A stretch of 55,364 nt of DNA from Leptolyngbyaceae cyanobacterium (GTDB taxonomy: Bacteria > Cyanobacteriota > Cyanobacteriia > Phormidesmidales > Phormidesmidaceae), in NCBI GenBank assembly GCA_965263355.1, contig CBDHHL010000013.1:1-55364 (forward strand), written 5' to 3'. Under the pieces are notes generated by a model. It was not told where the DNA came from. It ran no database searches and worked only from the letters and a program-made list of their open reading frames with translations. The position numbers and the translations under genes were made by a program. This document shows positions 6,028 to 48,351 of this stretch, piece by piece (position 1 is the first letter of the stretch; the number at the start of each line of letters is the position of its first letter).

Positions 6028-6097
6028 GCCATTATGCTTATAGACATTTTGGGTAGGTATGGGTATATTTTAATTATGTCGTTTACAGGTCGATACG

Positions 6098-7504
6098 ATG
6101 CCTACACTAACCTATTGCAAAGGTTTACCTACTCCAGCTGATGAGCTAAATGCTATTGGCTTTACTGAGTTTGAAATGTTCCTAACAGCCTATGCACCTA
6201 TATTTCATAAGGCTGTTTGTGAAACTGTTGCTCAGTTGCTATCAGACAGTTTCAATAAATCAAAATGGAATACTCACCTACAACAAACCTATGGCATTTC
6301 TAAACGTCATGCTAACGGAGTGATCTCCAGTGCAAAGGGTAGTGTAGATAGCGCTAAAGAGTGCCGTAAACTTCATGTAAAGCAGCTTGAGGGCAAGCTT
6401 AAATCTACTAAGCAGTGGGTGAAAAAGTCACTTAAACGGATTAAGCGTAAAGACTTTTACCCAGCCTGTAACCTACATACCCGTAGAACTCGATTACAAG
6501 ACTTACGGTTTGCTATCCACCATAAACAACGGCGTATAGCTGTTTTAGAGAGCCAGATTGACAACCTTAAAACTAAGCCTATCCAGGTTACTGTTCCCCG
6601 GTCTCAATGCTTTGTAGTGGGCTCTAAGGATGAAAGCTATGGTAACCAAACAGTTCAGTGGGCTGGTAACACAATTAAATTTCGTGTTCCCTATTGCCTA
6701 GAATCTAAATTTGGTAAACATGTTGAAACTAAGCTAGGTGGGTTTGAGCGCAACATTAACCGGATACCCTCAGATGGTGCTAAGACTTGGCATTTTTACC
6801 GTAAGGATGGCAAGTGGGTAGCAGCTGTTCAGTTCACCCCTAGCGCTGTTAAAAGGGTCTCTAAGCACTCAATGTATGGGTGCATCGGTATTGACCTCAA
6901 CCCAGGCTCTATAGGGTGGGCTTATGCCGATACTGATGGAAACCTAAAAGCTCATGGCCAGATCCCCTTACAAATGGGTTTACCCACAGGTAAACAGGAT
7001 GCTCAGATTGTTGATGCAGTTATGCAACTTGTCACCCTAGCTAAAACTTATAAATGCCCTATCGTTGCTGAGAAATTAGACTTTAGTAATAAGAAAACAT
7101 CACTCAAGGAACAAGGTAAAAAGTATGCTCGGATGCTGTCAGGGTGGGCTTATAGTCGGTTTAATGAGTTGCTAGATAGTATTTGTCAAAACCGTGGTAT
7201 CCGAGTTCTACGAGTAAACCCAGCTTATACCTCAGTTATAGGTCTGGTTAAGTACTCTAAACAATATGGTTTAGCCTCTGATGAGTCAGCAGCGCTAGCA
7301 ATTGCTAGACGTGCTATGAGGCTATCCGAAAGACTCCCAAGCTCCATAAATGCCTATCTAGAGGTGAACTCTGGAAAGCACATCTGGAGCCACTGGTCAC
7401 AACTGAATAAACAACTGAAAACCAAACGAGTAAGGCGACATACCTTTTACTCTATCTCTAACTGGGAATTCCTGGACAAGCGCAGTAAGTTACACAGCTG
7501 CTGA
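6098..7504 (+). CDS. tnpB: TnpB RNA-guided endonuclease-related protein
   Basis: RuvC motifs IGIDLN, IVAEKLDF, VNPAYTS, DESAALAIARR; downstream of IS607 tnpA. Confidence 0.9.
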   Translation: MPTLTYCKGLPTPADELNAIGFTEFEMFLTAYAPIFHKAVCETVAQLLSDSFNKSKWNTHLQQTYGISKRHANGVISSAKGSVDSAKECRKLHVKQLEGKLKSTKQWVKKSLKRIKRKDFYPACNLHTRRTRLQDLRFAIHHKQRRIAVLESQIDNLKTKPIQVTVPRSQCFVVGSKDESYGNQTVQWAGNTIKFRVPYCLESKFGKHVETKLGGFERNINRIPSDGAKTWHFYRKDGKWVAAVQFTPSAVKRVSKHSMYGCIGIDLNPGSIGWAYADTDGNLKAHGQIPLQMGLPTGKQDAQIVDAVMQLVTLAKTYKCPIVAEKLDFSNKKTSLKEQGKKYARMLSGWAYSRFNELLDSICQNRGIRVLRVNPAYTSVIGLVKYSKQYGLASDESAALAIARRAMRLSERLPSSINAYLEVNSGKHIWSHWSQLNKQLKTKRVRRHTFYSISNWEFLDKRSKLHSC

Positions 7505-8716: not shown

Positions 8717-9100
8717 TTATTGTTGGGGATGATTGAGGACCCATGCTTTGATTGCCAAGTTTTCAGTAGGCTGAATTAAAGTCTTGAGTGCGGCTTTAGC
8801 TTTTGAAAGTGCTTGAACTAATTCAATTTTGCAATCTACTGCTTGATCTGTATTTCTACTTAAAGTCATCACAAAAAGTGCTTGAGCTTCATTAAGTAAG
8901 CAGTATTTAAGCTGTCTCCCAAAGTCGTTGGCTTTTTCTGACTTCCGAACGATAGGCCCGAACTCAGCAACATATGCCTCATGCTTTCTGATATTTCTAA
9001 GGAAGCTAGCGTGTTTTATGCCTAGTTTTTTTGAGATTACTCTAGAATCAACTACTATGTTGCCGTCATCATCAAACATGACAATATTTGATTCAGTCAT
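8717..9100 (-). CDS. Rha-family phage regulatory protein
   Basis: VVDSRVISKKLGIKH..FLRNI; LNEAQALFVMTLSRNT...KIELV. Confidence 0.88.
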   Translation of the reverse strand: MTESNIVMFDDDGNIVVDSRVISKKLGIKHASFLRNIRKHEAYVAEFGPIVRKSEKANDFGRQLKYCLLNEAQALFVMTLSRNTDQAVDCKIELVQALSKAKAALKTLIQPTENLAIKAWVLNHPQQ

Positions 9101-22639: not shown

Positions 22640-23602
22640 TTACTGACTAGTAATAGCAGCCGCTAGACGTACATTTTTGCGTTCATAAACACGGGTCCAG
22701 CTAGCGCCTACCGCTAGTTCAGCATTGGTTGCAGCAGAACCCGCAGGAGTACCACCCCAACGAACACCAAATGGATGAAGGATAAAGATTCGACGGTTCA
22801 CTAAAAATTCAGTGCCCGCCAAAATGTCTTCATCTGTTTTAACTGCGTCCCCTGGGTCCATCCGAGCTTCACCATAGCCAATCGCACCAGCACCGGCAAA
22901 ATACGTTGTATATGGCCCAGCTCCGCCATTCGATGGGACTGAATCATCGACAATGACAATCTTGCCCATGTAAGTTGGGATTTGACCGTCAGGCCCGCCT
23001 AGTGTGGTGTCGATTTCTGATGGGACGATGAAGTTGATTTGTTCTTGTGCAACCAGATTCCAATAAACCGTGGAGTGACAGAACATGAAACCAAGTGCGT
23101 TGATTTCATCCCCTAGCAATGCCAGTGTATTCACTGCAATTGTTCGGTTCATTGGTGTGGCATTTTGATCATTAACATGCTGAGCCAGCATTGTTGCACT
23201 AGCAAAAACACCTGTTAATGTGCTAATTAATGCCGTTTGCATCCGTCTAGCCCAATAATCAGCCACTAAGTCAGCAATTTCACCCATGGGATCGTCACCA
23301 GACTTATATTTAGCCAATTGGCTAGAAGTCCATGCTTTTTTCCGATATAGGATAGTTGCTACGTCCTGAGCCGTTTGGATACGGCCAGGGACTTCCGCAG
23401 TTTCATCCCATACAAGATCATCACCAGTTAGATCGGTGAAGAACGGCATATTTATATTATTGCCACCTCCACTAGCCAGACGGTCTAATTCATTATTGCG
23501 CTCAACCATAGCAGAGGAAAGCAACAACGACTTTTGCGCTGTTCTTTCAACTGCATATGGGACAAAGATTTCAGGTACAATTATGTCCGCTAGAAATGCC
23601 AT
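22640..23602 (-). CDS. Major capsid protein (SPP1 gp13-like)
   Basis: LADIIVPEIFVPY, GGNNINMPFF.DL, GDDPM..IA..VA.YW, ILHPFG..W, W.RVY..KN. Confidence 0.92.
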   Translation of the reverse strand: MAFLADIIVPEIFVPYAVERTAQKSLLLSSAMVERNNELDRLASGGGNNINMPFFTDLTGDDLVWDETAEVPGRIQTAQDVATILYRKKAWTSSQLAKYKSGDDPMGEIADLVADYWARRMQTALISTLTGVFASATMLAQHVNDQNATPMNRTIAVNTLALLGDEINALGFMFCHSTVYWNLVAQEQINFIVPSEIDTTLGGPDGQIPTYMGKIVIVDDSVPSNGGAGPYTTYFAGAGAIGYGEARMDPGDAVKTDEDILAGTEFLVNRRIFILHPFGVRWGGTPAGSAATNAELAVGASWTRVYERKNVRLAAAITSQ

Positions 23603-26338: not shown

Positions 26339-27814
26339 TTAACCTAAAACTAATTGGTCGCCCCGGTCCATCAGCATTGGAGGGGTTGCATCGTCATCTG
26401 AATTTTCTCGCTTAAGTTCGGCTTTCATTTCCATCTCTTTAGTCCAGAAATTAATCGCTTCTAAATATGCTCTAACCTCGAATGTATCCTTGAAGCCACC
26501 CGTTTCAAGCAATAAGGGGATTAACTGCAATTCTTGAGGGGATGCTGCTGGTTTTAAGAATTTAAGGCTAATCTTTATCCCACCCGCTGATTCCTCAGGG
26601 TTATAACTGCGATCGCTTAACAACGCCCATAACTTAAACAACTCCTCAAATCCAGATTCAATCGCATTTGCAAACCACTGCATCGTCATTTGAGTTTGAC
26701 CAGCCTCTAATAATGCCGCCGTTGCTGTCTGGCTAATATTTATATACTTTTCTTTCTCTTCTCTGATCTCGTTTTTCAATGTTTGAATCCGCTGGTCGCT
26801 AATCATCATGCCAGTCCCTGCGGGCTCTACAAATTTAACGTCACCACCTTGCACATAATGCCAAACAAAATCACGACTCATTGGAATTTCAGGCGGTTCA
26901 TTTGGGATTTTGTTAGGCCATCCTTGAGCAGGAATAGGAATATTAACAGCCCGCTGAATTGCGTCTAACTCAGATTCCATATTAAATAACCGAATCAACT
27001 TATCGGTTAAGCTCATGAATGGAGGAATAACCGGCTGGCCTACCTTAGCCGTTGGATCTAATGAAAACCATATAAACGGTAACCGTCCTAACGGCTCGCC
27101 TGCTGCATTAGTGATCACCTCAGGTGGTCCCATGATGGCTAATTTGCCATGGCTTTGGGTCGTTTCAGCCTTTCTGCGTTCCCAGCGTTCTTTTGTGACA
27201 ACATCATCTTCCCCGTGCCGATATACCCAATAGGTTTCAACCTTTTGTACAGAAAATCCGTTATCGCTAGGTCTGTCCTCATACGACCGGATCGCAATTC
27301 GAGTTAATACATTCCTGTATTGTCCTGATTGCCTATCATAACGACGCTGGACTAATGGAGCTGACAAATCGCCTGGAGAAACTACGCTAAAGTAAGGCAC
27401 CCTTCCGTCTGGGTCTTCAGACTGTGGCGCAATATGGCAACCGCATAACACGACTCCATACTTGAATGCACCATGTAAAACCTTGCCTTGATACGTTTTT
27501 AGGTTGTCATTCTCAATTGTGACACTGGTTGCTTCGCCTTGTAACTCGTCTGGCGAATTTTCGCTTACCTCAAATTCATTTAACAATCCAGCATTCGCAG
27601 CAATCGCTTTTTTTAGCGACTCATCCATAGTCGCCAGTTCAACCCGAGATTGATAACTAATGTCAGTCTCTGCCTTGGCTTGCTCTAAGTAAGCCCTTCT
27701 TAAATCGGAAGTACATAAAGCCTGATACACATCATTAATGCGCTGCCATAAGATCGTATACTTTCCTATCCAGGATGCTGGCTTCCAATCTGGCCCGACT
27801 GCATCGCTTACCAT
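26339..27814 (-). CDS. Portal protein (DUF4055-like)
   Basis: YL....AET..SY..R; PL..LPFIW; PPF..L; FVEPAG; follows TerL. Confidence 0.85.
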   Translation of the reverse strand: MVSDAVGPDWKPASWIGKYTILWQRINDVYQALCTSDLRRAYLEQAKAETDISYQSRVELATMDESLKKAIAANAGLLNEFEVSENSPDELQGEATSVTIENDNLKTYQGKVLHGAFKYGVVLCGCHIAPQSEDPDGRVPYFSVVSPGDLSAPLVQRRYDRQSGQYRNVLTRIAIRSYEDRPSDNGFSVQKVETYWVYRHGEDDVVTKERWERRKAETTQSHGKLAIMGPPEVITNAAGEPLGRLPFIWFSLDPTAKVGQPVIPPFMSLTDKLIRLFNMESELDAIQRAVNIPIPAQGWPNKIPNEPPEIPMSRDFVWHYVQGGDVKFVEPAGTGMMISDQRIQTLKNEIREEKEKYINISQTATAALLEAGQTQMTMQWFANAIESGFEELFKLWALLSDRSYNPEESAGGIKISLKFLKPAASPQELQLIPLLLETGGFKDTFEVRAYLEAINFWTKEMEMKAELKRENSDDDATPPMLMDRGDQLVLG

Positions 27815-29727
27815 TTAGCCCTGCCTACAACAAAAACACTTGTATTCTTCTCATCCAACCATAACCTAAAGGCTAATTTCAAAAACATGGCCGCGAAAAA
27901 CTGATCGTCAACATGATCATCCGGCCTGACCCATTTACCCAGCTCCCCATCTTTTTGCATTGCGCATAGGTGCCTAACAGGTGAGCGCTCATCATTCCTT
28001 AGCTGCAACCATTTATGGAAACTCTCTGGTAGCCTCCATAACGGATATCCATCTGAGGCAATCAAATCAAACGACGCGGCTACCTGGTCTTGGAAGTCTT
28101 CTTGTCTAAAACTATACAAACAATAATTCTCACCATCGTGAATTTTATTCTCTGACCTAATGTCATACTCTGGCAAACTCATTTGCTTTCCTAAGAACAC
28201 GCCATGGTTGCGGGCTAGCGCGATGCCGTCAGCAACCTCAGGCTTAGAGTCATAGGCAATAGCATCAATATTATATTTTTGGATAATCGCCCCTACCTCT
28301 GAACGCTGGATTGGTCCGTAAAAAACAACCTCCATCACCGTCTTATCCGCAATCTCAGACGACAACATCTGACCATATCCACTAGGTAACCAGCATCTAG
28401 CTACCCATAGCCAGTCTTGATTAACTCCTTGATCTCCCCCTGCAACTACACAATCAGGCTCACGTTCAGGGATAGGTAGTTCGATGCACCGTTGGATCAT
28501 CTCTTCTGTAATGACCCCGCTGCCTGCCTCTGACGGAATACCCAGCACCTGTTGATGTGCATCAGCAATATCTTTGGACCCAAGCAACTGGCGTATCATT
28601 GTCGCTGCTGTATCTGAATCCCTGAGTAATGGCGAAATAATCAACGCACTACTAATTTGCTCTTTTGGCTCGCCATCAGGTAACCCTTGGAGAAACTGAG
28701 ACAACGTAATATCTTTTACTGACTCAATATCAAATTTAATATTAAACCTTACTCCCTGGAACCAAGCCCCGATCCTCACTTCGTCAGGCAACTTAGCCCC
28801 ACATTCAGAACATCCAATATAGGCAGACGATTCTATTTTGTCTGGGTCTGAATGCCACCATTCTAACGGCTTGCCCGATGGTGAAAACCACCGTTGTATT
28901 TCTTCCCCACGCTCAAACAACGTCACCGGTTTTAATAAGCATCCTTTTGGATGAAGGGGTTTAACAGCGCCACATTCAGGACATTTATAAAACGGATAAA
29001 AATGATGATCGTATTGCTGAAAATCTAACTCAATCCCTAACCCACCCCCCGGTGTTCCTAGATTGATATGCGGTGGATATGGCTTAAGTTTAGACTCAGC
29101 TAATCGTCTATAAAAAGCATCTCTTGCACCCGGCGGCGACTGAGAACGTTCTTCATCAATCAATCCATCAGCCTGAAAGCCCACGTTAACACCCCCCGCA
29201 GCCGCTAAGCCCTTTCTCTGCCCTACATTGCGATTAACACTCGAATAAACATATTTAGCAAAACCGCCTGATAATGATTTCCATATCTCAGTGTTGCGAT
29301 CTAAATTATTTCCATTCAATTCTTTGGCCTCTTCCCAAGCATTCAGAATCGGCCTAAGGTTCAAAGTCACCTGAGAGTTACGAGCCGCCTGAGAATCATA
29401 GGAATAAATCATTTTTAAGCCTAGTTCCTGTACCGCATAGGCTAAAAACAACGTGCATCCTAACGACTTGCCAGACTGCTGAGCGCCACTGATAGCTTTC
29501 TTAGGAATTCGTAATTCTCCCAACCATTTTAGATATTCAATAAACCATGGCCTTAAACGAATCGGGTCACCGTTCTCATTGCAGCCAAATGATTTAACGG
29601 CTTCTATAAACTGCTCGCCAGTCGTATAGTAGCGTTGAGCCTCCGTTGCTTGTCCCTCACGCTCACGCTCTCTTCGTCGCCTGCGCCTCTCCCTTTCAGC
29701 TAATGCACGTTGCCTAAGCGTCACCAT
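27808..29727 (-). CDS. terL: Terminase large subunit
   Basis: Walker A GAQQSGKS, Walker B LIDEE, GTP coupling motif, CPEC/CSEC zinc ribbon, nuclease GGDQG...DHVDD. Confidence 0.9.
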   Translation of the reverse strand: MVTLRQRALAERERRRRRREREREGQATEAQRYYTTGEQFIEAVKSFGCNENGDPIRLRPWFIEYLKWLGELRIPKKAISGAQQSGKSLGCTLFLAYAVQELGLKMIYSYDSQAARNSQVTLNLRPILNAWEEAKELNGNNLDRNTEIWKSLSGGFAKYVYSSVNRNVGQRKGLAAAGGVNVGFQADGLIDEERSQSPPGARDAFYRRLAESKLKPYPPHINLGTPGGGLGIELDFQQYDHHFYPFYKCPECGAVKPLHPKGCLLKPVTLFERGEEIQRWFSPSGKPLEWWHSDPDKIESSAYIGCSECGAKLPDEVRIGAWFQGVRFNIKFDIESVKDITLSQFLQGLPDGEPKEQISSALIISPLLRDSDTAATMIRQLLGSKDIADAHQQVLGIPSEAGSGVITEEMIQRCIELPIPEREPDCVVAGGDQGVNQDWLWVARCWLPSGYGQMLSSEIADKTVMEVVFYGPIQRSEVGAIIQKYNIDAIAYDSKPEVADGIALARNHGVFLGKQMSLPEYDIRSENKIHDGENYCLYSFRQEDFQDQVAASFDLIASDGYPLWRLPESFHKWLQLRNDERSPVRHLCAMQKDGELGKWVRPDDHVDDQFFAAMFLKLAFRLWLDEKNTSVFVVGRAKW

Positions 29728-30312: not shown

Positions 30313-31023
30313 ATGGAAATTCAAGATATTGATATTGATCTGCTCATCCCCTACGAAAATAACGCCAAGCTTCACCCAGATTGGCAAGTCAAATCAATTG
30401 CTCGTTCTATTGAACAAACGGGCTTCGATGTGCCGCTGGTCGTTGTCCCTGATGGCGATAAGTTTCTAATCGTTAAAGGCCATGGCAGACGGTTAGCTGG
30501 CCTTATGCTTGGAATGCCCAAACTACCTTGCTATGTGTCGTCACTGTCAGGCGATGTCGCTATAAAAGCCGCTAGATTGCTTGATAACAAAACCCAAGAC
30601 TCAGGCTATGAACTAGAGGCGTTAATCAGTGAGCTAGAGGCAATCTCAGCTATTGATGAAGACATATACACTGGTTACGATGAGCAAGAAATTAGTGATT
30701 TAATTTCACGGTTCAATGATGAAGATTTAGACGAATTAATAGAAGAATCCATCGACAGCGATCGCGAACCTCAACAAAACCCTGAACCCCAGCAAAACCT
30801 CGAACCTCAGCAAAACCTCGAACCCCAGCAAAACCTCGAACCTCAGCAAAACCTCGAGCTTGAGCAAATGCCTCCATTAGGCGATAGCGATAAAGTGCCG
30901 TTAGCGATCGTATTGACTCAGGATGAAATGTTTGAATGGAATCAGGACAAAGAGCGGTTGGGATATGCTACGGATGGGAAGGCATTTAAGGAGATGTGGC
31001 GGCAGTGGAAAGACAATCACTAA
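30313..31023 (+). CDS. ParB/Srx N-terminal domain protein
   Basis: LIPYENNAKLH..QV..IARSI...GF..P.VV....IVKGHGRRLA. Confidence 0.92.
   Translation: MEIQDIDIDLLIPYENNAKLHPDWQVKSIARSIEQTGFDVPLVVVPDGDKFLIVKGHGRRLAGLMLGMPKLPCYVSSLSGDVAIKAARLLDNKTQDSGYELEALISELEAISAIDEDIYTGYDEQEISDLISRFNDEDLDELIEESIDSDREPQQNPEPQQNLEPQQNLEPQQNLEPQQNLELEQMPPLGDSDKVPLAIVLTQDEMFEWNQDKERLGYATDGKAFKEMWRQWKDNH
30766..30855 (+). repeat. 18-bp coding tandem repeat x5 (EPQQNL/P)
   Basis: GAACCYCARCAAAACCYY units. Confidence 0.9.
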
Positions 31024-34086: not shown

Positions 34087-34139
34087 TGTTACTAACAGTA
34101 TTGCTTTTTTTATTTCATCTGTCAAGTCTTTTCTTGACA
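34087..34139 (-). promoter_or_regulatory. Early promoter with TGTCAA-N8-TTGACA operator
   Basis: TTGACA-17-AATACT then TGTTAGTAACA; same family as 36665, 37074, 37641, 38055. Confidence 0.8.
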
Positions 34140-34354
34140 TTTTCTGAGGCAGTTTGATTATGGCTTAGAGTGCGATCGCGCTCACCGCTCAGCCCGTTGT
34201 CTTTAATGAGAATCGCACACAAAGCAGACCAACTGTCACACAAAAGGCTAAAAAACCCGTTTTTGCTTCATATTCTTAACTCAGACACCTGTCGTAAGTC
34301 CATGGATACATAAATACTATCAAAAATGTATCTGAATATACAAACTGAGAAGTC

Positions 34355-34493
34355 TGTGCAGGCCATGCAGGCCATGCAGGCCTCAAAACTTGAAGATCTA
34401 ACGTGTGTGCGGTCGCGGGTCGATTTTTGGCAAAACCACACACACGTTGTTTTTCCAAGAAAAGTGGCCTGCATGGCCTGCATGGCCTGCACA
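34355..34493. repeat. Perfect 28-bp inverted repeat built of 9-bp units, 83-bp spacer
   Basis: TGTGCAGGCCATGCAGGCCATGCAGGCC (34355-34382) and its reverse complement (34466-34493). Confidence 0.95.
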
Positions 34494-34713
34494 ACGGACA
34501 TAGGGAAATTTTTGGCTTATTGAGATTGGCACACTAAAAAACCGCCAAGTTTTTAGACTCGACGGTTTTTGAGGTTTTTCAAGATAAAAAGATTCCCTGG
34601 CTTGGCTTATACGGTCGACTAGGCGCATCCACCTAGTTCAACCAAGCAGGCTTGAACGCTAAGGATTCTCCAAACCTTTCCTTGGTGAAGTACTTTGCAT
34701 CCTTGGTTTATTT

Positions 34714-36339: not shown

Positions 36340-36609
36340 CTAATCAACGTCGCTAGAGCCCTTTTCTGTCAAGCTTTTTATTGGCACTATGATGATTGTT
36401 GGACTATTTTTGGACTCTTTTTCGATCATCTTTACATACTCCAATATAGAGCCAAGTTGAGCGTTAGGGAGTTTCTTCTCCCTCTCGTCAATTCCTTGTC
36501 TGTTCTTTAGCCCCAGTGCTCTAGCGGCTTGCGCTTTGACGGGGACTTCTGCCCTTCTCCATTCAATCAAAAGATCTGGCAGCGCTTCGATAAACTCGCT
36601 TAATTTCAT
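36340..36609 (-). CDS. Putative HTH repressor
   Basis: KAQAARALGLKNRQGI..RE; divergent from the operator-bearing promoters; operator-like site over its start. Confidence 0.6.
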   Translation of the reverse strand: MKLSEFIEALPDLLIEWRRAEVPVKAQAARALGLKNRQGIDEREKKLPNAQLGSILEYVKMIEKESKNSPTIIIVPIKSLTEKGSSDVD

Positions 36610-36664
36610 GTCAAGTCTAGTATTTACATCTGGACTATAGCAAAGCAAAATTAATTTTGCAAAT

Positions 36665-36719
36665 AGTCAATAAATTACTTGACATCTGAAAATAAAAAAA
36701 GGTATATTTGTTAGTAACA
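36665..36719 (+). promoter_or_regulatory. Early promoter + operator
   Basis: AGTCAA-N8-TTGACA, -10 TATATT, TGTTAGTAACA. Confidence 0.85.
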
Positions 36720-36741
36720 AAGCGAAACGGAGTTACTTAAG

Positions 36742-37017
36742 ATGGACATTAAGTTCTTAGGGCATGAGTCAAAAACAGGTAAAAATCAAGTTTTGATCAA
36801 CGATTTCAGGTTTGAATTTAAGCTAACTCCCAAAGGGGCTGCATCCTTCAAGGATCTAGATGGAATGTTCCCTGAGAAGAAAGGAAAAGTTGTAGCCAGA
36901 ACATACAGATCTTTTAGAACCTTGCTAGGCATTCAGCCTGGTTCCCCTTTGGCGAATAGCTTAGTTACGTGTACATCGTGCGCAAGAATTCACTACCCTT
37001 GGATGTTTAGCAATTAA
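36742..37017 (+). CDS. Hypothetical protein
   Basis: GGAG RBS; lies between promoter and terminator. Confidence 0.75.
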   Translation: MDIKFLGHESKTGKNQVLINDFRFEFKLTPKGAASFKDLDGMFPEKKGKVVARTYRSFRTLLGIQPGSPLANSLVTCTSCARIHYPWMFSN

Positions 37018-37030
37018 GCGACACCATCTA

Positions 37031-37074
37031 AACCCCGCTAACCACAACACCCCGGTTAGCGGGGTTCTTTTTTT
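37031..37074 (+). terminator. Intrinsic terminator (repeated at 38015)
   Basis: AACCCCGCTAACC...GGTTAGCGGGGTT + T tract. Confidence 0.9.
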
Positions 37075-37116
37075 GTCAATAAATTACTTGACACTTGAAA
37101 AGCTATCGTTTAGTAT
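37074..37116 (+). promoter_or_regulatory. Early promoter + operator
   Basis: TGTCAA-N8-TTGACA-17-TAGTAT. Confidence 0.8.
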
Positions 37117-37140
37117 TTGAAGTGTAATTGAGGTCGAGTA

Positions 37141-37635
37141 ATGGCAAAAGTATTTAAAGTCAAAACACAAATCCCACCTAGACAACTTGGGCTAGTGGGA
37201 GATAGATCGTGGGAAGAATCCGAAAATCTTTTCTATGCGCAAGAGCTTATCCAAGCTAAAGACCAAAAAGAAGCCATGGCGATCGCGGCTAAGTATGGAG
37301 CGATAGTTTCAGTGGAGGAAACAACCATCAAGCCGAAATCAAAAAGGCAGCAAGCCATAGAAAGCCTACTGTCTGTCAATTCGGCACAAGAAAAAACATG
37401 GCACGAATTTGTATGTGAGTACCTAGTCCTTGTGACTGGGCTTAAGAAAAATAGAGATCTTGTAAGTGGCTACCAGCTGAAGAAAAATAAGAAAGGATAT
37501 TCAATCCGTTGGGGCGGAAGAGACATCATGCTAAATGACATGACTCCTGATGTTGCTTATTCTTTTTGTTTGCGCCATGGACTATCGTACTTTGTCAGGG
37601 AAGCCGAAAATTACAGGATGGATTTATTAGCCTGA
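37141..37635 (+). CDS. Hypothetical protein
   Basis: GAGG RBS; 164 aa. Confidence 0.75.
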   Translation: MAKVFKVKTQIPPRQLGLVGDRSWEESENLFYAQELIQAKDQKEAMAIAAKYGAIVSVEETTIKPKSKRQQAIESLLSVNSAQEKTWHEFVCEYLVLVTGLKKNRDLVSGYQLKKNKKGYSIRWGGRDIMLNDMTPDVAYSFCLRHGLSYFVREAENYRMDLLA

Positions 37636-37640
37636 TTTTT

Positions 37641-37695
37641 TGTCAAGAAATTACTTGACACCTGAAAATAAAAAAGGCATACTTGTTAGTAACAA
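37641..37695 (+). promoter_or_regulatory. Early promoter + operator
   Basis: TGTCAA-N8-TTGACA-17-CATACT, TGTTAGTAACA. Confidence 0.85.
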
Positions 37696-37773
37696 AGCAA
37701 GCAGGGCATATCGGCTCCCCCGAAAGGACATAGCCGAAAAAGCCTGAACAGTATAACTAAAAAGGAGAGTCAA

Positions 37774-38016
37774 ATGTCTGTATTAACTGGCGCTAGTTGC
37801 AATCTTCCAAAGTTTGCACACCTTGAGACCGTCATTGTTGAACGTGGTTATCCTGCCTTTTATGAGGTGTGGAGCATCGAGGAGGTTTTCCCCATTCCCA
37901 TAATCAAAAAAGGGACATCCCAAATCATCGGTTATACGTTCAATTACGCTTTAACTCAAAGTAACGAACTTAAAGTAATTACAAGCTCATGTTCTGAATC
38001 TGAGATTGTTGCCTAA
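37774..38016 (+). CDS. Hypothetical protein
   Basis: AAGGAG RBS; 80 aa. Confidence 0.75.
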   Translation: MSVLTGASCNLPKFAHLETVIVERGYPAFYEVWSIEEVFPIPIIKKGTSQIIGYTFNYALTQSNELKVITSSCSESEIVA

Positions 38017-38055
38017 CCCCGCTAACCATACCCCGGTTAGCGGGGTTCTTTTTTT
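38015..38055 (+). terminator. Intrinsic terminator
   Basis: Same 13-bp stem as 37031 + T tract. Confidence 0.9.
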
Positions 38056-38097
38056 GTCAAGAAAATGCTTGACACTTAAAAAGAGATTCGCTATCTT
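38055..38097 (+). promoter_or_regulatory. Early promoter + operator driving the non-coding region
   Basis: TGTCAA-N8-TTGACA-17-TATCTT. Confidence 0.85.
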
Positions 38098-38103
38098 AGA
38101 AAT

Positions 38104-38491
38104 GTGAGAGACGGGATGCAACCCCGCAGTCAAAGCCACTGACGAGGGGAGATACGCATTTTAACTCTTGGGGTTAGTCAAGATAAACGACGGGTTTTTA
38201 CCCTGATATAGCGGAAGTAACCGCCTACTCATCGCGGTACCACACCAAACGACGGTGTCGGTCGTAAAGTTCGAAAGAAGCCGAAGGTGGGAGGACAAAC
38301 AAAATGACTAACTAAAAGAACAGCAAGCCCAAAGCATACCCGTTGAGCGCTTCGGTGCAATAGGCGACACATGTTAGGGCGAACTAGGAACCCATTAGCG
38401 GGCACACCGAGCTATACAATCGCGTGTCATCCTGGCGAGCTGAGATGTAATCAGTAAGGGCTTTAGCGGTGTTGAGCCTTATCAATGCCGC
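38104..38491 (+). ncRNA. Putative large multi-domain structured RNA, family not recognised
   Basis: No ORF >=60 aa; own promoter; nested helices 38166-38180/38305-38319, 38325-38330/38458-38463, 38366-38370/38424-38428; UUCG and GAAA tetraloops; 3' hairpin. Confidence 0.7.
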
Positions 38492-38615
38492 CTAGAATCT
38501 TTGAGGAAAACCAATGGATAATCTTTATATCATTGGCTACCTTTTGTTTCTCTTCACGGCAAATGTAGCCTTAATGTAGTTTGTTTTCAAAAAAAAGGAA
38601 AAAGGAGAAAAAATC

Positions 38616-38798
38616 ATGAATTGGATTAGTGTTGATGACCACAAGCCCGATGAATGGGAACCAGTGCTGGTATATTCGCCTCACCATGGTTACTTTGTTG
38701 CCACCTACATTGATGGGCGCTGGGAAGATGCCAATACAATGAGAAGTTTGGATGACATGGGAATAACCGATTGGGCAGAATTAACGGTGCCTCAATAG
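38616..38798 (+). CDS. DUF551-like phage protein
   Basis: MNWISVDDHKP...VLVY...ITDW. Confidence 0.85.
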   Translation: MNWISVDDHKPDEWEPVLVYSPHHGYFVATYIDGRWEDANTMRSLDDMGITDWAELTVPQ

Positions 38799-38865
38799 CT
38801 TTCAAATCGCCCCAGGCATGGCGTTAAACTGCCTTTGATGTTTTGTTTTATTAACGGAGAATGAA

Positions 38866-39072
38866 ATGAATAGAAACGATGTGACCAGGGAGGAGTATCT
38901 GGCCCTCGCTGGTCAGGTTGCTAACGGATTGCATGCATGCACTGGGTTTCTCAATGAGCCTGAGGACATAGCCGAATCCGTTCTAGAACGGACTGATGCG
39001 TTGGTTCAAAAGCTCAATGAGCGGTTTGCTCAAGAAGACTTTGAACCAAGTAGTGGCTATTATCAGCTTTAG
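38866..39072 (+). CDS. Hypothetical protein
   Basis: GGAG RBS; 68 aa. Confidence 0.7.
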   Translation: MNRNDVTREEYLALAGQVANGLHACTGFLNEPEDIAESVLERTDALVQKLNERFAQEDFEPSSGYYQL

Positions 39073-39085
39073 GCATGGAGGAGTT

Positions 39086-39367
39086 ATGTTTATCAAACAA
39101 CGAAAGTTTAGAGAGTTTTACTATGAACAGCATTTTGGCCCAACGAGGGGAAGTGCTGCTCATCGTTCTATGCTAGGTCGTAAATATCTCAAGGATGATT
39201 TATTAGCCTTTGCTCGCATGCAGGGGTGTGCTGTACACGAAGGTCTGACTAAGCCTCAGATAGCTGAGCTTCTTATGCAACATGCTCACGCAGGCAGGCC
39301 ATACAGAGATGTCTCTATAGAAGAACTTGCTGATGAATTACTTAAAGAGGCGTTCAGACAACCATGA
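39086..39367 (+). CDS. Hypothetical protein with HeH-like segment
   Basis: GGAGGAG RBS; KDDLLAFAR..G....GLTKPQIA. Confidence 0.7.
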   Translation: MFIKQRKFREFYYEQHFGPTRGSAAHRSMLGRKYLKDDLLAFARMQGCAVHEGLTKPQIAELLMQHAHAGRPYRDVSIEELADELLKEAFRQP

Positions 39368-39594
39368 AAACATATAAAGTTGATGCCACAGGCGACTACA
39401 AAAACGATCGCGCCGCTTTAGACCAGCTAAAGCAAAGAGGTTTTGAGTGCGGCATTGACGTTGGAGGCTTATGGTTTTTGACTGAGCCGGATCAACTTTG
39501 GCGGGCTAAAAACGTTCTGAGTGAATACGGATTGCAGGTTGTCGAGGAAACAACCGCGAGGCTGTTAGCAATGGATCGGCTTGATCAAGTCTGA
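39364..39594 (+). CDS. Hypothetical protein
   Basis: ATGA-coupled 76-aa ORF. Confidence 0.7.
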   Translation: MKTYKVDATGDYKNDRAALDQLKQRGFECGIDVGGLWFLTEPDQLWRAKNVLSEYGLQVVEETTARLLAMDRLDQV

Positions 39595-39642
39595 TTTCAC
39601 GTAATCCTGATCGTATAAATACTTACACCACCGAAAAGAAAA

Positions 39643-40080
39643 ATGAAAAAACTAATCACAGCGATCGCTTTCACCCTTTCTATGGCCACCACGGCCAACG
39701 CGTTACCCGTCTGCTACAGCATGACTGAAGACGGTTCAATCACCGACCTGTCCCATATGTGCCCAGCATCTGAGCAGCCAGTAACGATCGCGGCCAGACG
39801 ATCACCTGAACTACCCGCAGTGGAAGTTGCCACAGAATCGCCTAAAGCCACCTTCCAAGTCCGTCGCATTAACAGAACCAATTGGACAGCTACTGGGACG
39901 GTTAATTTTTCAAGGGCTGCTGAACCAGGCGATCGCGTAGTTCCGTATTTACAGTATGAAGATGGACGGCAGGCATCATTGCCCGCAGTAACATATGAGC
40001 GTGGGAACCGCAGAACGGAGATTACGTTTAATGTGACTCCTGGCACTAGCACTAGTGAGGTAGACGGCGGTGTACGGTAG
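39643..40080 (+). CDS. Secreted protein with signal peptide
   Basis: MKKLITAIAFTLSMATTANA then PVCYSMTEDGSITDLSHMC. Confidence 0.8.
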   Translation: MKKLITAIAFTLSMATTANALPVCYSMTEDGSITDLSHMCPASEQPVTIAARRSPELPAVEVATESPKATFQVRRINRTNWTATGTVNFSRAAEPGDRVVPYLQYEDGRQASLPAVTYERGNRRTEITFNVTPGTSTSEVDGGVR

Positions 40081-40105
40081 TTTTGATTAATTTTTTAAGG
40101 AGATA

Positions 40106-40510
40106 ATGGCAATCACTAACTTCGGCCTATACCCAACTTCTATTATTTTCCAACTACCCACTGGCATAACTGATGATTTTGAGGGTGGCTCCGCTGATGG
40201 CCTAACTGCTGTTACGGTGCCATGCCGGGTAAAAGTCGCGGCTCAAAATAGAGCAAGCCAGTTCAACACTGCCGCGTTCGAAGGCCCCAATAATAATAGT
40301 GTGATGCTACTTGGTTGGTGCGGCACTGAAGCTGCGCCAACTGAGTATTTATTCCCTAATAACCTTAGAGGCTGGCCTGAGCCACCGACTGGGACGATGG
40401 AATTAAACGGCATTAGCGGCAAAGTTGAAGTGCTCATTCAACCGTTCGCGATCGCTGATGCGGCCCCTGGCATTGGCGAACGGTTTATCGCACGATGGAC
40501 AGCTAGCTGA
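40106..40510 (+). CDS. Putative head-closure / head-tail joining protein
   Basis: AAGGAG RBS; beta-rich 134 aa; first gene of the neck/tail cluster. Confidence 0.55.
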   Translation: MAITNFGLYPTSIIFQLPTGITDDFEGGSADGLTAVTVPCRVKVAAQNRASQFNTAAFEGPNNNSVMLLGWCGTEAAPTEYLFPNNLRGWPEPPTGTMELNGISGKVEVLIQPFAIADAAPGIGERFIARWTAS

Positions 40511-40913
40511 GCATACAAATTTTTTGACCTAGTTCACGCAATGGGGTGCTATCAAATCGACTTGCAAATGTTAACGATTCAAACGTCATCACCAAATGAT
40601 CCCCCTCGTATTGACCAAGCTCCCTCATCACTCCAGATGGGCCATAGTTAGTAGCCAGTCGAATCTCATAGCTCGGTAGTAAAATGCTTGGATCGGTGTC
40701 CAGCTCACAGTGATCAGCGCCGCCATTAAAGATTCCGGTTATACATCGGTACATTCCATATGCCGAATAAAGCCCCCACCCTGTTAAGAAAGGGAGTCTA
40801 ACCCCATTAATATAGAATTGAACATTTTTCCCATCGACCACTGTGTCTGGACCTGCACAGATATTCAATGGGATTTTTAATGTGCTAATTTTTGAGGTAC
40901 TTAATTTAATCAT
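40503..40913 (-). CDS. Hypothetical protein (inverted insert)
   Basis: 136 aa overlapping the 40906 gene. Confidence 0.6.
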   Translation of the reverse strand: MIKLSTSKISTLKIPLNICAGPDTVVDGKNVQFYINGVRLPFLTGWGLYSAYGMYRCITGIFNGGADHCELDTDPSILLPSYEIRLATNYGPSGVMRELGQYEGDHLVMTFESLTFASRFDSTPLRELGQKICMLS

Positions 40914-43616: not shown

Positions 43617-43879
43617 CTGAGCTAGCCGAGGAAGCCACGGCGACTAGTGAGGTTGCGGCATTAATCGCACGGGCGAATTTTAAGAACGCTGAAGACGCCA
43701 GCGCGACTGATTTTAATCGTTGGGGATTAACCCAACGCAGGAATGAGCTTGCTAAGACTATCCCTCCTGAGGCCGCAAAAATCTATGTGAAGTTGCTGAA
43801 GAAAAGCCGAGTGCCAGATTGGGCGAGGGCGATTATGTCTGAACGCGATATGACGTTATTAGCAGGAAAGGTTGAATAG
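43457..43879 (+). CDS. Tail assembly chaperone gpT-like part reached by -1 frameshift
   Basis: -1 frame open from 43457: GKRRNSEPIDWGKLCWQLQRWYP...LDAARVWRD...GKVE*. Confidence 0.8.
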   Translation, partial: GKRRNSEPIDWGKLCWQLQRWYPGCEYFRPSQFRNCPSKLALDAARVWRDDRIAELAEEATATSEVAALIARANFKNAEDASATDFNRWGLTQRRNELAKTIPPEAAKIYVKLLKKSRVPDWARAIMSERDMTLLAGKVE

Positions 43880-46800
43880 TGGTTCAAGCTGGTTCGGTTG
43901 AATTCGCAGTTGAATTTTCGGAGTCGAGTATTACGGCTGCGATCGCTGACTTGCGGACACGGTTCAACCGGGTTGATGACCTTGCTATTGATGTCAGACT
44001 GAATGATGAGACTGTTATTCGTGGCATCAGTGATATTAGACAGCAGCTTAGTAATGCTGATAATGTTCGGCTGGATGTTAATCTTGACGATTCAATTACT
44101 AGAGAGATAACCCAGCTTAGACAACAGTTAGAAGCTATCAACAGAACTCAGGCAAGTGTTGACTTTGGGCGCAGTGCTGCTCAGGCTGACGCGATCGCTC
44201 AGTCACTGACTCAGTTAAGAGCCCAGTCAAATATTCCAGTAACTGTCAATACGAATGCTGCCCAGCGTAATGTTCAGGAGTTAAGGCGTGGATTTGCAAC
44301 GGTTCAACAGGCTGTTGATGGATTGAGTCGTGAGAGGATCAACCTAGAAGTTAATGCTCGAAATATTCAAAATCAGATTGCGGCGGTTGATGCCAGAATT
44401 CAACAACTGCGTGACAAAGAGATTCAGATTCGAGCAAATTCTAGAGCAGCTGAAGCAACAATTCGAAATTTAGACGCTCAAGTTACTGAACTTCAGCGTA
44501 ATCGTTCTGATATTCAGCTAAAGATTGATGCTCGCACTGAAGAAATAAATACTATCGAGCAAACGATAGAACGGCTTAGAAATACTCGAATAAATTTAGA
44601 GCTAAACCCATCCACCAGTAACCAAGCACTTAATTTGTTGGATCAGCGAATCCAGCAATTAAGCAATGAGCGAATTAAGCTAGAAACCGATAGCACGTTA
44701 CAGAATCAAATTCTGCAGATAGAAGATAGGATCGGCAGAATTCAATCACGACGACTTCGGCTAGAGGCTGATACACGCCAAGCTGAACCACGCATTAGGC
44801 AGATTCAGACTCAGCTCGGTACGCTTGACGATAAACGAGTTCGATTGAATGTCGATGCCGACAACGCAACTGAACAGATTCGCACTCTCGATAGACGGTT
44901 AGAGGCATTAGGGGGCGGGAACGCTAGGCAGGCATTACGGCAAATTAACAGGGAACTAAGACAATTAAGCTCTCCCACAATATCGCCCAATCTAGATCTT
45001 AGTGGCATCCGGAATAGTAGCGGAATTGTTCAAGGAATTTTCCAGGGGATTGGCCAAAGAGTTTTTGATACTCTAGCTAACGCTATTGGAGGGGGCATCA
45101 GAGCAGGGCTTTCAACTGTTCAAAATGCAGTTGGTTTTGAGCAGGCATTAGTTACGTTTAGCGCTCGTGCGGGTGGAGCTGAGGAAGCGATCGCGGCGGT
45201 CACCGAAGAGTCCAGGCGATTAGGAATTGAAACCAGTAAAACGCCTGAAGAAGTGGCGCGCATCGCTACTCGAATGGTCGAATTAGGTGGTGAAGTCACT
45301 GAAGTTGGGGATAATGTTGCAGGCGTTGTAGCTGCACTAGAAGGAACTGGTTTTACTAATATTGATGCGACCGCCAAAGCCATTCAGGCGGGAACAAATA
45401 TTTTTAACGAGTCTGCCGATGCTTTGGCCGATAAAATCACGCTACTTGCCAATACAACAGCAGTTACATCAGCTGAAGGCATTTTGCAGGCATTTGGTAA
45501 AGCGGGCGGTTCGTTTGTCGATGCCGATGTTAGCGCGTCAACATTATTGGCAACATTTGCTAAATTCTCCGAGACAGCCACTCCTGAAGTGGCCGCGACT
45601 GCAACCAGGAATGCCCTGGATGGTTTAAGAGGCAGGACTGATGTAGCAAGAGAAGCATTAGACAGGCTAAACGTTTCATTCTTTGACAATCAAGGCCCGA
45701 CCGCATTTACAGATACATTAATAGATCTTAGGGATGCACTTGAACCGCTAAGTGAAGAAGATCGATTTACAGCTTTACAAGATATTTTTGGCGGCAGAAG
45801 TGCTTCACAGATAGGATTGTTATTGCAAGGTTTAGACGATGTAATCGCAAAAACTGATGAACTTGAACAGGGCTTCGGCGCATCCGGTGAAGCTGCAGAC
45901 AATCTAAATCAGGGCGTTGCTGCGGCGGTTAATCGACTGCAAGGAACCCTGACCACTGCGGGAACCGATCTTGGCTTAGCACTGACACCAGGTATAGAGG
46001 CGGGCGTTAGAACATTGACCGCGTCAATTAATGCTGCCATTGAAGACGGTGATGCTTTTGGGGACACAGCGGCTTCAGTCGAGGCACTATTGGAGGCTGT
46101 TGACGGCTCTGAGGTTGTCGACGTTTTATCGGCTAGTCTTCGCAGCTTATTTGATTCGGTTGATGCGGGGGCAGCTAGCCTGATTGATTCGCTATCTAAT
46201 ATATTGAGTGATCCTGAAAATCTTGATAGGTTTGGCCAATCAATTGAAAATCTTGGAACTGTCCTGGGTGGGACTTTAAGAATTGCGGGCGTTGCTGCTG
46301 AGGCGTTTACTGTACTATCAGCAGCATATTCTGACACGATAGGCGATGGCCCAGCTGAAGCAATTGGGCAATTTTCATTAATTCTTGAAGGGATTGTCCC
46401 GGTTGCAATTCAGGTTAGAGATTCAATATCCGGTTTAGTAAATCCGGTCACTGAATTTTTAGATCGCTTTTCCTTGGTTGGCGATTTAATAAATCAGTTC
46501 GGCACTTTAGGCCCAGCTATTGGCGCGATAGGCCTAGCCTTTACCGGGGTCACTAATACAGTTCAATTATTGCGGGAACAGTTAGGGTTTTTAACAGCTG
46601 AGGCAGTCCAGCCAGCTGTAATTACCGATGCTGGGGCTGAGGGCGTCCAGGCGTTAGTGAATGCCGGAAGTAGATTATCTTCTGATGCTGGCCAAAATAG
46701 CAGAGAGGAACAGCTAGCAGCAGCACAAGCATTGGCTGGCCAGTTGGGAGATATTGAAGCCAATGGCGTTGAATTATCTGAACGGAGAAAAGAACAGCTC

Positions 46801-48351
46801 AGGGAAGAATCGTTGCAGGCATTAGAGGATACTCAGTCTGCTGCCCTGGCAAGATTAGCAGCTCAAGAAGCTGAACAGATTAATGATATTCGTCAGGCTC
46901 AATTGGCAGCTGGCCCTGAAGATCCAACAGCCGAAAGCAATGCAGATTCGGCTATTCGTGATATTCAAGCTGACTTTGCCCAGCAACGGATCCAGATCGC
47001 TCAAGATGAAATCGATCAAATCAATCAACTAAGAGCCGATGGCATTATTACAGCTGAGGAAGCTGAGCAACGGTTGGTCACTGCTAAACAGGAGTCTGCC
47101 GAATTGTCAGTGCAGGCGATTGAGCAGCAGATCGCAGCTGAACAAGCCGCTGCTGATGCTGTTAGAGAACGGATTGAAGAAGAGCTATCAGCCAGAGAGC
47201 GGTTAAATGCCCTGGCATCCGAACAAACAAATTTGCAGTTTGAGGTTGATAATTCTGGTTTAGAAAATCAATTATCAATATCCCAGGCTTTAGCTAATGT
47301 TGATGCTGCGAGAATTGATTCAGCGGCTCAATTAATTAGTGCTCAATTGGCTCAAGCAGAGGCAACTGAAAACTTTGCAGCAGTTGAGGAAGCCAGAGAT
47401 CGGCTATTACTTAATCAGTTGCAATCAATTCGAGCAGGTACCCAAGCCCAACAGCAACAGATTGCTATCCAACGGCAAATAGTAACGCTTGATGGCCAGA
47501 GACAAATAACGTTAGCTCAGATTGCCCGTGATGAAGCCCAGATTGCAGTAGATAGAGCCCGTTCGAGCCAGGGAATATCGACAGAGGAGCTTAATGGGCT
47601 TCAGTCGATTGTTGAACTCAGGGCGCAAGGAATTGAATCTGCTAGGGCAAATTTAGATGTTCAACTGAGTATTTTAGACGCTCAAGAAGAAGAACAAAGC
47701 ATCTTAGCTGAAACCGCTGAAGCTGAGGCAATCAGAGAGCGGAGATTGGAGGGCATTGAATCATTAATTGAACGCCAAACTGATTTACTAGACGAGCAAA
47801 AAGACTTAGAAAGTGATATTGCCGATGAGACAGAACGACGGCAGAGTGCTATTGATTCGATTGTTTCGTCATTAAGCGGCCTAGAAGATGTCGGTGCTGA
47901 GCAGGCATTAGAAGACTTGAACCAGCTTGAAGATAATTTACGTTCAGCCAGACGAGCAGGCGCAATTGATAGTGAAACTGCGTCACAGTTGCAGTCAGGA
48001 ATTAATCAGGCCCAGCGGTTAGCACGTTCCGGCGACGGATTTACAGTAGAGGAAGCTTTTAATTTTTCAGATAGTCAAAATCCATTTGCTCAAAGCATTT
48101 TGGATAGTTTAGGGCTGGGTGGGGTTAATGCATTTGCTGAAGCTCAGCAAGAAATTTTATTGGCCGATACTCAGATAGAACAGCTGACAACCAAGTTAGA
48201 GGAAGTTAGAGATGCTGTTGCTGCTTTGCCAGAGACCTTGCCCACTGGCATAGAAAACCTAACCGTATCGACTCCCGACCCGATCGCTGATGCTGCTCAA
48301 ATTACAGCCGATCTAACTCGGCAACAACAGATTGCGGAGGGAGTGATTTAA
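43879..48351 (+). CDS. Tail tape measure protein
   Basis: 1490 aa helical; FEQAL...SRRLG.ET..TPEEVA; A.TA.RNAL..L; follows the chaperones. Confidence 0.93.
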   Translation: MVQAGSVEFAVEFSESSITAAIADLRTRFNRVDDLAIDVRLNDETVIRGISDIRQQLSNADNVRLDVNLDDSITREITQLRQQLEAINRTQASVDFGRSAAQADAIAQSLTQLRAQSNIPVTVNTNAAQRNVQELRRGFATVQQAVDGLSRERINLEVNARNIQNQIAAVDARIQQLRDKEIQIRANSRAAEATIRNLDAQVTELQRNRSDIQLKIDARTEEINTIEQTIERLRNTRINLELNPSTSNQALNLLDQRIQQLSNERIKLETDSTLQNQILQIEDRIGRIQSRRLRLEADTRQAEPRIRQIQTQLGTLDDKRVRLNVDADNATEQIRTLDRRLEALGGGNARQALRQINRELRQLSSPTISPNLDLSGIRNSSGIVQGIFQGIGQRVFDTLANAIGGGIRAGLSTVQNAVGFEQALVTFSARAGGAEEAIAAVTEESRRLGIETSKTPEEVARIATRMVELGGEVTEVGDNVAGVVAALEGTGFTNIDATAKAIQAGTNIFNESADALADKITLLANTTAVTSAEGILQAFGKAGGSFVDADVSASTLLATFAKFSETATPEVAATATRNALDGLRGRTDVAREALDRLNVSFFDNQGPTAFTDTLIDLRDALEPLSEEDRFTALQDIFGGRSASQIGLLLQGLDDVIAKTDELEQGFGASGEAADNLNQGVAAAVNRLQGTLTTAGTDLGLALTPGIEAGVRTLTASINAAIEDGDAFGDTAASVEALLEAVDGSEVVDVLSASLRSLFDSVDAGAASLIDSLSNILSDPENLDRFGQSIENLGTVLGGTLRIAGVAAEAFTVLSAAYSDTIGDGPAEAIGQFSLILEGIVPVAIQVRDSISGLVNPVTEFLDRFSLVGDLINQFGTLGPAIGAIGLAFTGVTNTVQLLREQLGFLTAEAVQPAVITDAGAEGVQALVNAGSRLSSDAGQNSREEQLAAAQALAGQLGDIEANGVELSERRKEQLREESLQALEDTQSAALARLAAQEAEQINDIRQAQLAAGPEDPTAESNADSAIRDIQADFAQQRIQIAQDEIDQINQLRADGIITAEEAEQRLVTAKQESAELSVQAIEQQIAAEQAAADAVRERIEEELSARERLNALASEQTNLQFEVDNSGLENQLSISQALANVDAARIDSAAQLISAQLAQAEATENFAAVEEARDRLLLNQLQSIRAGTQAQQQQIAIQRQIVTLDGQRQITLAQIARDEAQIAVDRARSSQGISTEELNGLQSIVELRAQGIESARANLDVQLSILDAQEEEQSILAETAEAEAIRERRLEGIESLIERQTDLLDEQKDLESDIADETERRQSAIDSIVSSLSGLEDVGAEQALEDLNQLEDNLRSARRAGAIDSETASQLQSGINQAQRLARSGDGFTVEEAFNFSDSQNPFAQSILDSLGLGGVNAFAEAQQEILLADTQIEQLTTKLEEVRDAVAALPETLPTGIENLTVSTPDPIADAAQITADLTRQQQIAEGVI

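Follow-up and report, generated by a model that had tools for sequence, protein, structure and literature searches.

PeSL (promoter-early stem-loop) cassettes of T4-type phages are reported to be small, repeated elements in which a strong sigma-70-like promoter is paired with a terminator stem-loop (PMC2839356; PMC4122927). They are reported to flank orphan genes, and related genomes to recombine there (PMC2839356, Arbiol et al. 2010). The window analyzed here, a complete 55,364-bp (55.4-kb) contig encoding a tailed phage, contains a five-copy set of operator/promoter cassettes which, judged by its sequence, is PeSL-like, as it consists of a repeated promoter together with a terminator stem-loop. 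As with the PeSL cassettes, promoters recur here in five cassettes, two of them fused to a terminator, and orphan genes are flanked by them; short variant contigs branch at them, which may reflect similar recombination. The window cassettes differ in adding an operator-like 8-6-8 palindrome over the -35 hexamer, in belonging to a siphovirus-like, temperate-looking cyanophage instead of a T4-type myovirus, and in that one of them bears non-coding cargo. We regard as the solid result of this analysis the five-copy operator/promoter/terminator cassette system itself, with one unit that has an unusually long gene-free leader.

The phage contig and its cassettes

The window phage is siphovirus-like and temperate-looking. 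On the - strand it encodes a large terminase (27808-29727), a DUF4055 portal-like protein (26339-27814), a capsid protein (22640-23602), and a Rha/Ant-like regulator (8717-9100); on the + strand are genes for a ParB-like protein (30313-31023) and a tape-measure protein (43879-48351). An IS607-type element at 5404-7504 pairs a 468-aa TnpB with a serine recombinase that has a MerR HTH. TnpB copies from Microseira, Scytonema, Calothrix, Brunnivagina, Dulcicalothrix, and Stigonema share 54-67% identity with this one, and the phage host is therefore probably a filamentous cyanobacterium. Phages of filamentous cyanobacteria are little studied, and the window phage appears to have distant relatives only. 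Its terminase was matched in 4 of 401 cyanobacterial genomes, the best two at 39% identity, and these two genomes showed no early-region synteny and nothing else in common with the window. The terminase had no match among phage records, and no related phages were found in IMG/VR when the terminase and a 164-aa protein were used as anchors. Almost all genes at 33.7-42.9 kb are orphans, and a cluster search with the 80-aa protein that neighbors the gene-free leader returned its own cluster only.

We searched the whole window with the operator pattern TTGTCAAGAAANNNCTTGACAC, allowing up to three mismatches, and found 6 matches representing 5 sites (one being counted on both strands) vs. 0.02 expected by chance. 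One operator/promoter site is on the - strand (34119-34140) and the others are on the + strand (36664-36685, 37073-37094, 37640-37661, and 38054-38075), and TTGACA-17/18-TAnnnT is present at every one of the five. Together, the half-sites TTGTCAAG/CTTGACAA make up an 8-6-8 palindrome that spans the -35 hexamer. In cassette 4, whose site is TTGTCAAGAAAATGCTTGACAC (38054-38075), the palindrome reads TTGTCAAG-N6-CTTGACAC and overlaps the -35 hexamer of a sigma-70-type promoter, TTGACA-17-TATCTT (38069-38097, + strand), with the -35 TTGACA at 38069-38074 and the -10 TATCTT at 38092-38097. The promoter spacing would place the transcription start near 38104. The palindrome looks like an operator, to which a repressor may bind. 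The initial annotation had credited the leader with its own repressor-controlled promoter; the promoter part of this claim stands, with 10/12 positions matching the consensus, whereas “repressor-controlled” comes down to the 8-6-8 palindrome alone, as family searches recognized no repressor among the window proteins.

Ahead of the promoter of cassette 4 is a predicted intrinsic terminator (38015-38056, + strand), a 13-bp stem AACCCCGCTAACC/GGTTAGCGGGGTT followed by a T-run, which would end the preceding 80-aa gene unit. A common terminator, ACCCCGGTTAGCGGGGT plus a T-run, is located upstream of two of the five sites, and the 59-nt terminator-and-operator modules at 37044-37102 and 38025-38083 are 90% identical. 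Every cassette flanks an orphan gene. The leader of cassette 4 is exceptional within the phage because the other three rightward leaders, those of cassettes 1-3, extend for only ~20-85 nt before their ORFs.

The comparative data are short contigs, all from a single study with three runs, none of them on record as RNA. Depth in these variants is highest on the cassettes, where the contigs also branch, with loose ends and joints that go back at 37662, 37698, and 38087. One variant lineage carries a 5-nt deletion (38091-38095) that removes most of the cassette 4 -10 TATCTT, and the same lineage has ~11 substitutions in 38053-38203; the cassette 4 promoter is therefore not fixed in the population. 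No similarity between the cassettes and sequence outside the contig was found. The operator pattern occurred at 3 loci in IMG/VR and at 43 loci in metagenomes, in each case as a single chance match with dissimilar flanks.

Several further gene-free gaps of 450-600 nt occur elsewhere in the phage. In the leftward early region, the gene-free gap at 34141-34713 (- strand) contains a giant hairpin (34352-34497), whose 59-nt arms consist of three tandem GCAGGCCAT units plus an inner stem rich in GT. With a folding energy of -97.4 kcal/mol (z -12.6), it is far more striking than anything in 38104-38491; it may represent an RNA element, a terminator, or an origin or cruciform.

Coding capacity and folding of the leader

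Behind cassette 4 is a gene-free stretch of ~410 nt with many stop codons, of all three kinds, in all six frames. The initial annotation had noted that this cassette drives no protein for ~500 nt, and indeed the + strand has no ORF of at least 30 aa in 38108-38615, with the next such ORF starting at 38616. The largest spurious ORF (58 aa, - strand) has no product on record, and both a decayed gene and an alternative genetic code were rejected in view of the three stop codons present in every frame. The only Shine-Dalgarno-led ORFs in the region are one of 3 codons (MTN, 38304-38315) and one of 21 codons (38514-38579). GC content reaches 0.51 in 38104-38491, compared with 0.40-0.42 for the three genes upstream and 0.315 for 38492-38615. 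The gene-free stretch is probably transcribed into RNA.

To known RNA families the stretch has no recognizable relation. With the covariance models of Rfam 15 (including GOLLD, ROOL, HEARO, OLE, riboswitches, ribozymes, RNase P, 6S, and tmRNA), the whole window gave 0 matches at the gathering score. At E ≤ 10, 10 sub-threshold matches were obtained in 37900-38750, none of them inside 38104-38461; those to sok (19.4 bits, with a threshold of 59) and SNORD25 (14.1 bits) touch the 3′ hairpin only. ARAGORN likewise found 0 tRNA or tmRNA genes in the window, in agreement with the initial annotation, which saw no tRNA or tmRNA hallmarks. Several candidate elements were considered and dropped: a boxA-like GCAUUUUAAC (38153-38162), for which a Calothrix rrn leader has no recognizable counterpart; a hammerhead core (CUGACGA at 38139), which leaves no space for stem I; iterons or a replication origin, as direct repeats are absent inside the stretch; and an omega-RNA of IS607-type TnpB, as the stretch is dissimilar to TnpB loci.

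The leader begins with a 5′ segment (38104-38165, + strand, z -1.60) that contains a small GUCA/UGAC hairpin (38129-38143). Domain 1 (38166-38319, + strand, z -2.77) is drawn as a four-way junction with GGGU/ACCC, GCGG/CCGC, ACACC/GGUGU, and UUC-GAAA-GAA hairpins, and its closing helix, 38166-38180/38305-38319, has 13/15 pairs including one G-U. Domain 2, in the form given by the initial annotation (38325-38463, + strand, z -0.21), has a GC content of 0.53 and a GCGC-UUCG-GUGC hairpin, and its AAGCCC/GGGCUU helix corresponds to 38325-38330/38458-38463. Next to it is a 3′ hairpin of 10 bp (38467-38492, + strand, z -2.69), two of which are G-U, and behind it there is no T-run. All of the helices named initially are present in the sequence, although some of the coordinates given for them were off by 1-9 nt.

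In the predicted ensemble, three inner hairpins of domain 1 have pair probabilities of 0.51-0.97 and the closing helix has 0.68; the GGGU/ACCC helix, for which there is no valid pair probability, forms in minimum-energy folds. In domain 2, CUGA/UCAG reaches 0.93, while AAGCCC/GGGCUU and GACAC/GUGUC are at 0.01 and 0.00 respectively. In the form initially drawn, domain 2 is not favored thermodynamically.

Compared with shuffled sequences, the whole 388 nt folds on the + strand at -119.5 kcal/mol with z -1.79 (matched by 6/100 shuffles) and on the - strand with z +0.23, and domain 1 alone gives z -2.77 (0/200 shuffles) and -1.79 respectively. The + strand thus folds better in both cases, in agreement with the initial assignment of an RNA to this strand. 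For 38104-38331 z is -1.92, and for 38104-38640, which comprises the leader and the ORFs, it is -0.76. As a background control, we folded 554 arbitrary 154-nt windows of the contig (277 positions, both strands) with 25 shuffles each, and obtained a mean z of -0.56 with an sd of 1.34. Among these background windows, 35/554 were at z ≤ -2.77 and 85/554 at z ≤ -1.79, and two fixed-grid windows inside the stretch gave z +0.65 (38201-38354) and z -1.59 (38401-38554). Domain 1 is a plausible + strand fold by these predictions, yet no outlier for this contig.

The initial annotation had gone further and described a single multi-domain structured RNA of ~390 nt. This claim of a large structured RNA is unsupported by either the folding statistics or the comparative data: the fold signal is in domain 1 only and within the contig background, no terminator marks a 3′ end, and variants carry domain 1 without the sequence beyond 38329. 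The 3′ hairpin is followed by CUAGAAUCUUUGAGG, in contrast to the seven-T runs of the phage’s own terminators, and a terminator scan found no intrinsic terminator in 38100-38615. Transcription should therefore run on into the 21-codon ORF (38514-38579, + strand) and the DUF551 gene (38616-38798, + strand; PF04448, E 2.4e-4, 22.4 bits with a cutoff of 22), the latter being the first recognizable protein gene of the unit. The 21-codon ORF, MDNLYIIGYLLFLFTANVALM, is hydrophobic, with a GAGG Shine-Dalgarno ahead of it and the start codon inside a local hairpin; the 21-aa peptide has no family match. Opposite this ORF is a weak - strand promoter-like site (38590-38562, 9/12 consensus), and the terminator scan found no antisense terminator there.

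The second small ORF lies within domain 1 and consists of GGAGG, a 10-nt A-rich spacer, and AUG ACU AAC UAA (38289-38315, + strand, with the AUG from 38304). The initial annotation had this mini-ORF sequestered in the long helix, and the minimum-energy fold agrees: the AUG is within the closing helix of domain 1 and the Shine-Dalgarno pairs with CCUACUC (38225-38231), leaving the ORF half-buried. A 23-mer from this region, GGAGGACAAACAAAATGACTAAC (38290-38312), has five exact matches in IMG/VR. At the two loci that were read, both on low-GC phage contigs, it forms the ribosome-binding site and start (MTN...) of real genes; at all five, no flanking similarity to the window was found. Homology was accordingly rejected in favor of a convergent start region, the flanks being dissimilar. 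The matches show the 23-mer to be what should be a competent start region, and its translation in the leader is predicted at most. Toxic minigenes of 3-8 codons and the tRNA-sequestering lambda bar minigene are documented in an earlier report (PMC2490762). The mini-ORF is similar to these minigenes in having a Shine-Dalgarno and an ORF of few codons on a phage early transcript (predicted here), and differs from the lambda bar minigenes in its codons, AUG ACU AAC UAA, and in being half-buried in a helix.

Relatives and population variants

A distant-mode blastn search with 38040-38620 against phage records gave no homolog, and, apart from the 23-mer, exact patterns of the stretch led to no relative in IMG/VR, JGI metagenomes, or genome contigs. 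BLAST of 38098-38600 in three sets of cyanobacterial genomes (5, a phylum sample of 401, and an order sample of 401) returned only matches of 22-74 nt, the best of which (E 1.2e-5 per genome) is to an AT-rich coding-like stretch; these short matches are judged to be chance. BLAST of the larger region 36600-40600 in 20 and 389 family-level genomes gave no homolog either, the five genome sets (5, 401, 401, 20, and 389) being overlapping ones. A single-sequence covariance model of domain 1, run on 151 genomes and the window, found only its self-match.

Among 40 of the 123 differences in the variant contigs, four in 38104-38491 have the best support. In the GUCA/UGAC hairpin, A38142G leaves U-G where the window has U-A, and A38278G likewise makes U-G out of U-A. 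A38274G converts a GAAA loop to GGAA, so that it stays within the GNRA class, and the 7-nt loop of ACACC/GGUGU is shortened by a 3-nt deletion at 38249. The local hairpins are compatible with all four changes (4/4). They are not evidence of structure, because by our estimate ~0.75 of random events would be compatible and four such events would occur by chance about 1 time in 3. Among 24 of the 449 contig pieces, divergence is 1-3% in the stretch (~7% in one piece), 2.7-3.7% in the upstream genes, and 8-14% in the DUF551 gene. Since the divergence of the stretch is similar to that of the upstream genes, there is no sign of special constraint.

The variants also differ in what they contain. Variant contigs end or diverge at 38329, just inside the 5′ end of domain 2, continue into unrelated sequence, and rejoin at 39388; because of this break, domain 1 occurs without domain 2. 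At another joint (38115>38392), 24 nt are found in place of 38116-38391. This joint is weakly supported, with only 30 nt on one side, and suggests that 276 nt of the leader can be absent. In a further variant, 5 nt replace 38578-38800, which includes the DUF551 gene, and the 21-codon ORF remains intact with a TGA stop.

Readings of the leader and known systems

The reading we prefer, at about even odds, is that the early-right operon has in 38104-38513 a non-coding 5′ leader of modular build. In this model, the operator-bearing promoter would fire and RNA polymerase would transcribe 38104-38513 as the leader of the fourth early-right unit, and would then continue through the 21-codon ORF and DUF551 into the genes that reach to ~40510. 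The leader would comprise at least two separable modules, namely 38104-38329 (domain 1 and the 5′ segment) and the remainder, and domain 1, either in cis or once processed, may influence how stable the downstream message is or how it is translated. The leader’s anatomy, its lack of coding capacity, the consensus matches of the promoter and terminator, and the modularity in the variants are observations; transcription, read-through, and a regulatory effect are what we infer for it.

It is rather unlikely, in our assessment, that the stretch is a functionless spacer, i.e., leftover or shuffled DNA between a mobile cassette and the next gene module, generated as a by-product of cassette-mediated recombination and containing helices by chance only. 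Such a spacer would be consistent with fold statistics that stay within the contig background, with variant breakpoints at 38115, 38329, 38392, and 38577, with the very high depth on the cassettes, and with the neighboring genes all being orphans and the other 450-600-nt gaps being gene-free. However, phage genomes tend to be densely packed with genes, the stretch exceeds its neighbors by 10 GC points and contains a perfect strong ribosome-binding site, and the strand asymmetry of its folding fits an RNA.

More doubtful still is the view taken in the initial annotation, a free-standing trans-acting ncRNA of ~390 nt (or ~225 nt, if domain 1 alone) that would serve as a decoy, scaffold, or regulator. 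Its 3′ end would arise either by processing at the 10-bp hairpin or through protection by that hairpin, which lacks the T-run of the phage’s own terminators; domain 2 is without a fold signal, with drawn helices at probabilities of 0.00-0.01; the unit is split at 38329 in the variants; and no relatives came from phage records, IMG/VR, JGI metagenomes, genome contigs, or the overlapping cyanobacterial genome sets. What speaks for such an RNA is the promoter of its own (a consensus match), a GC-rich island with stable tetraloops (cUUCGg and GAAA), A-rich linkers, and a preference for the + strand, together with the z of -2.69 of the 3′ hairpin. It would be a new RNA, because no known family matches.

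We give little credence to the leader being that of a type I toxin-style message, whose folded 5′ UTR would silence the 21-codon hydrophobic ORF for as long as it is unprocessed, perhaps together with an antisense RNA that starts at the - strand site at 38590-38562: the Shine-Dalgarno, the start codon in a hairpin, the promoter-like site, and the fact that the variant without DUF551 retains the ORF and gives it a new stop codon are in its favor, but the peptide has no family match, no antisense terminator was found, the sok-like Rfam match is far below its threshold, and the complementarity between 38291-38304 and 38542-38555 (12/14, A/T-rich) may be chance. In a variant of the same idea, the MTN mini-ORF, with its consensus start region, would act on host translation in the manner of the lambda bar minigene. 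Equally much of a long shot is that 38104-38329 (~225 nt) constitutes a new portable phage ncRNA module, shuffled by the cassettes, whose helix-gated consensus ribosome-binding site and three-codon ORF would, soon after induction, tie up ribosomes or tRNA of the host; if this were true, the module would be an RNA-level device for host take-over.

The stretch can be set beside several described systems. It shares the size class of several hundred nt and the phage context with GOLLD, ROOL, and HEARO. What defines those families is strong covariation among numerous homologs, whereas the searches gave no homolog of the stretch, and the window has no gathering-score match to them. The lambdoid nut/boxA and HK022 put sites are antitermination leaders, and, similarly, the stretch would be a promoter-proximal structured leader before an early operon. 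Unlike in those systems, no N, Q, or Nun homolog was recognized in the window, and the unit has no downstream terminator to read through.

DicF is a non-coding RNA module in the dicBF operon of Qin, an early prophage operon. The stretch has no sequence or Rfam relation to DicF, and relatives of it were not found; the similarity is one of organization, as both have a repressor-type early promoter followed by a long non-coding folded stretch and then small genes. As with DicF, the window RNA may be processed from a polycistronic transcript. Should domain 1 turn out to be a stable and functional RNA, it would exemplify how PeSL-like cassettes move non-coding cargo in a phage whose hosts are filamentous cyanobacteria.
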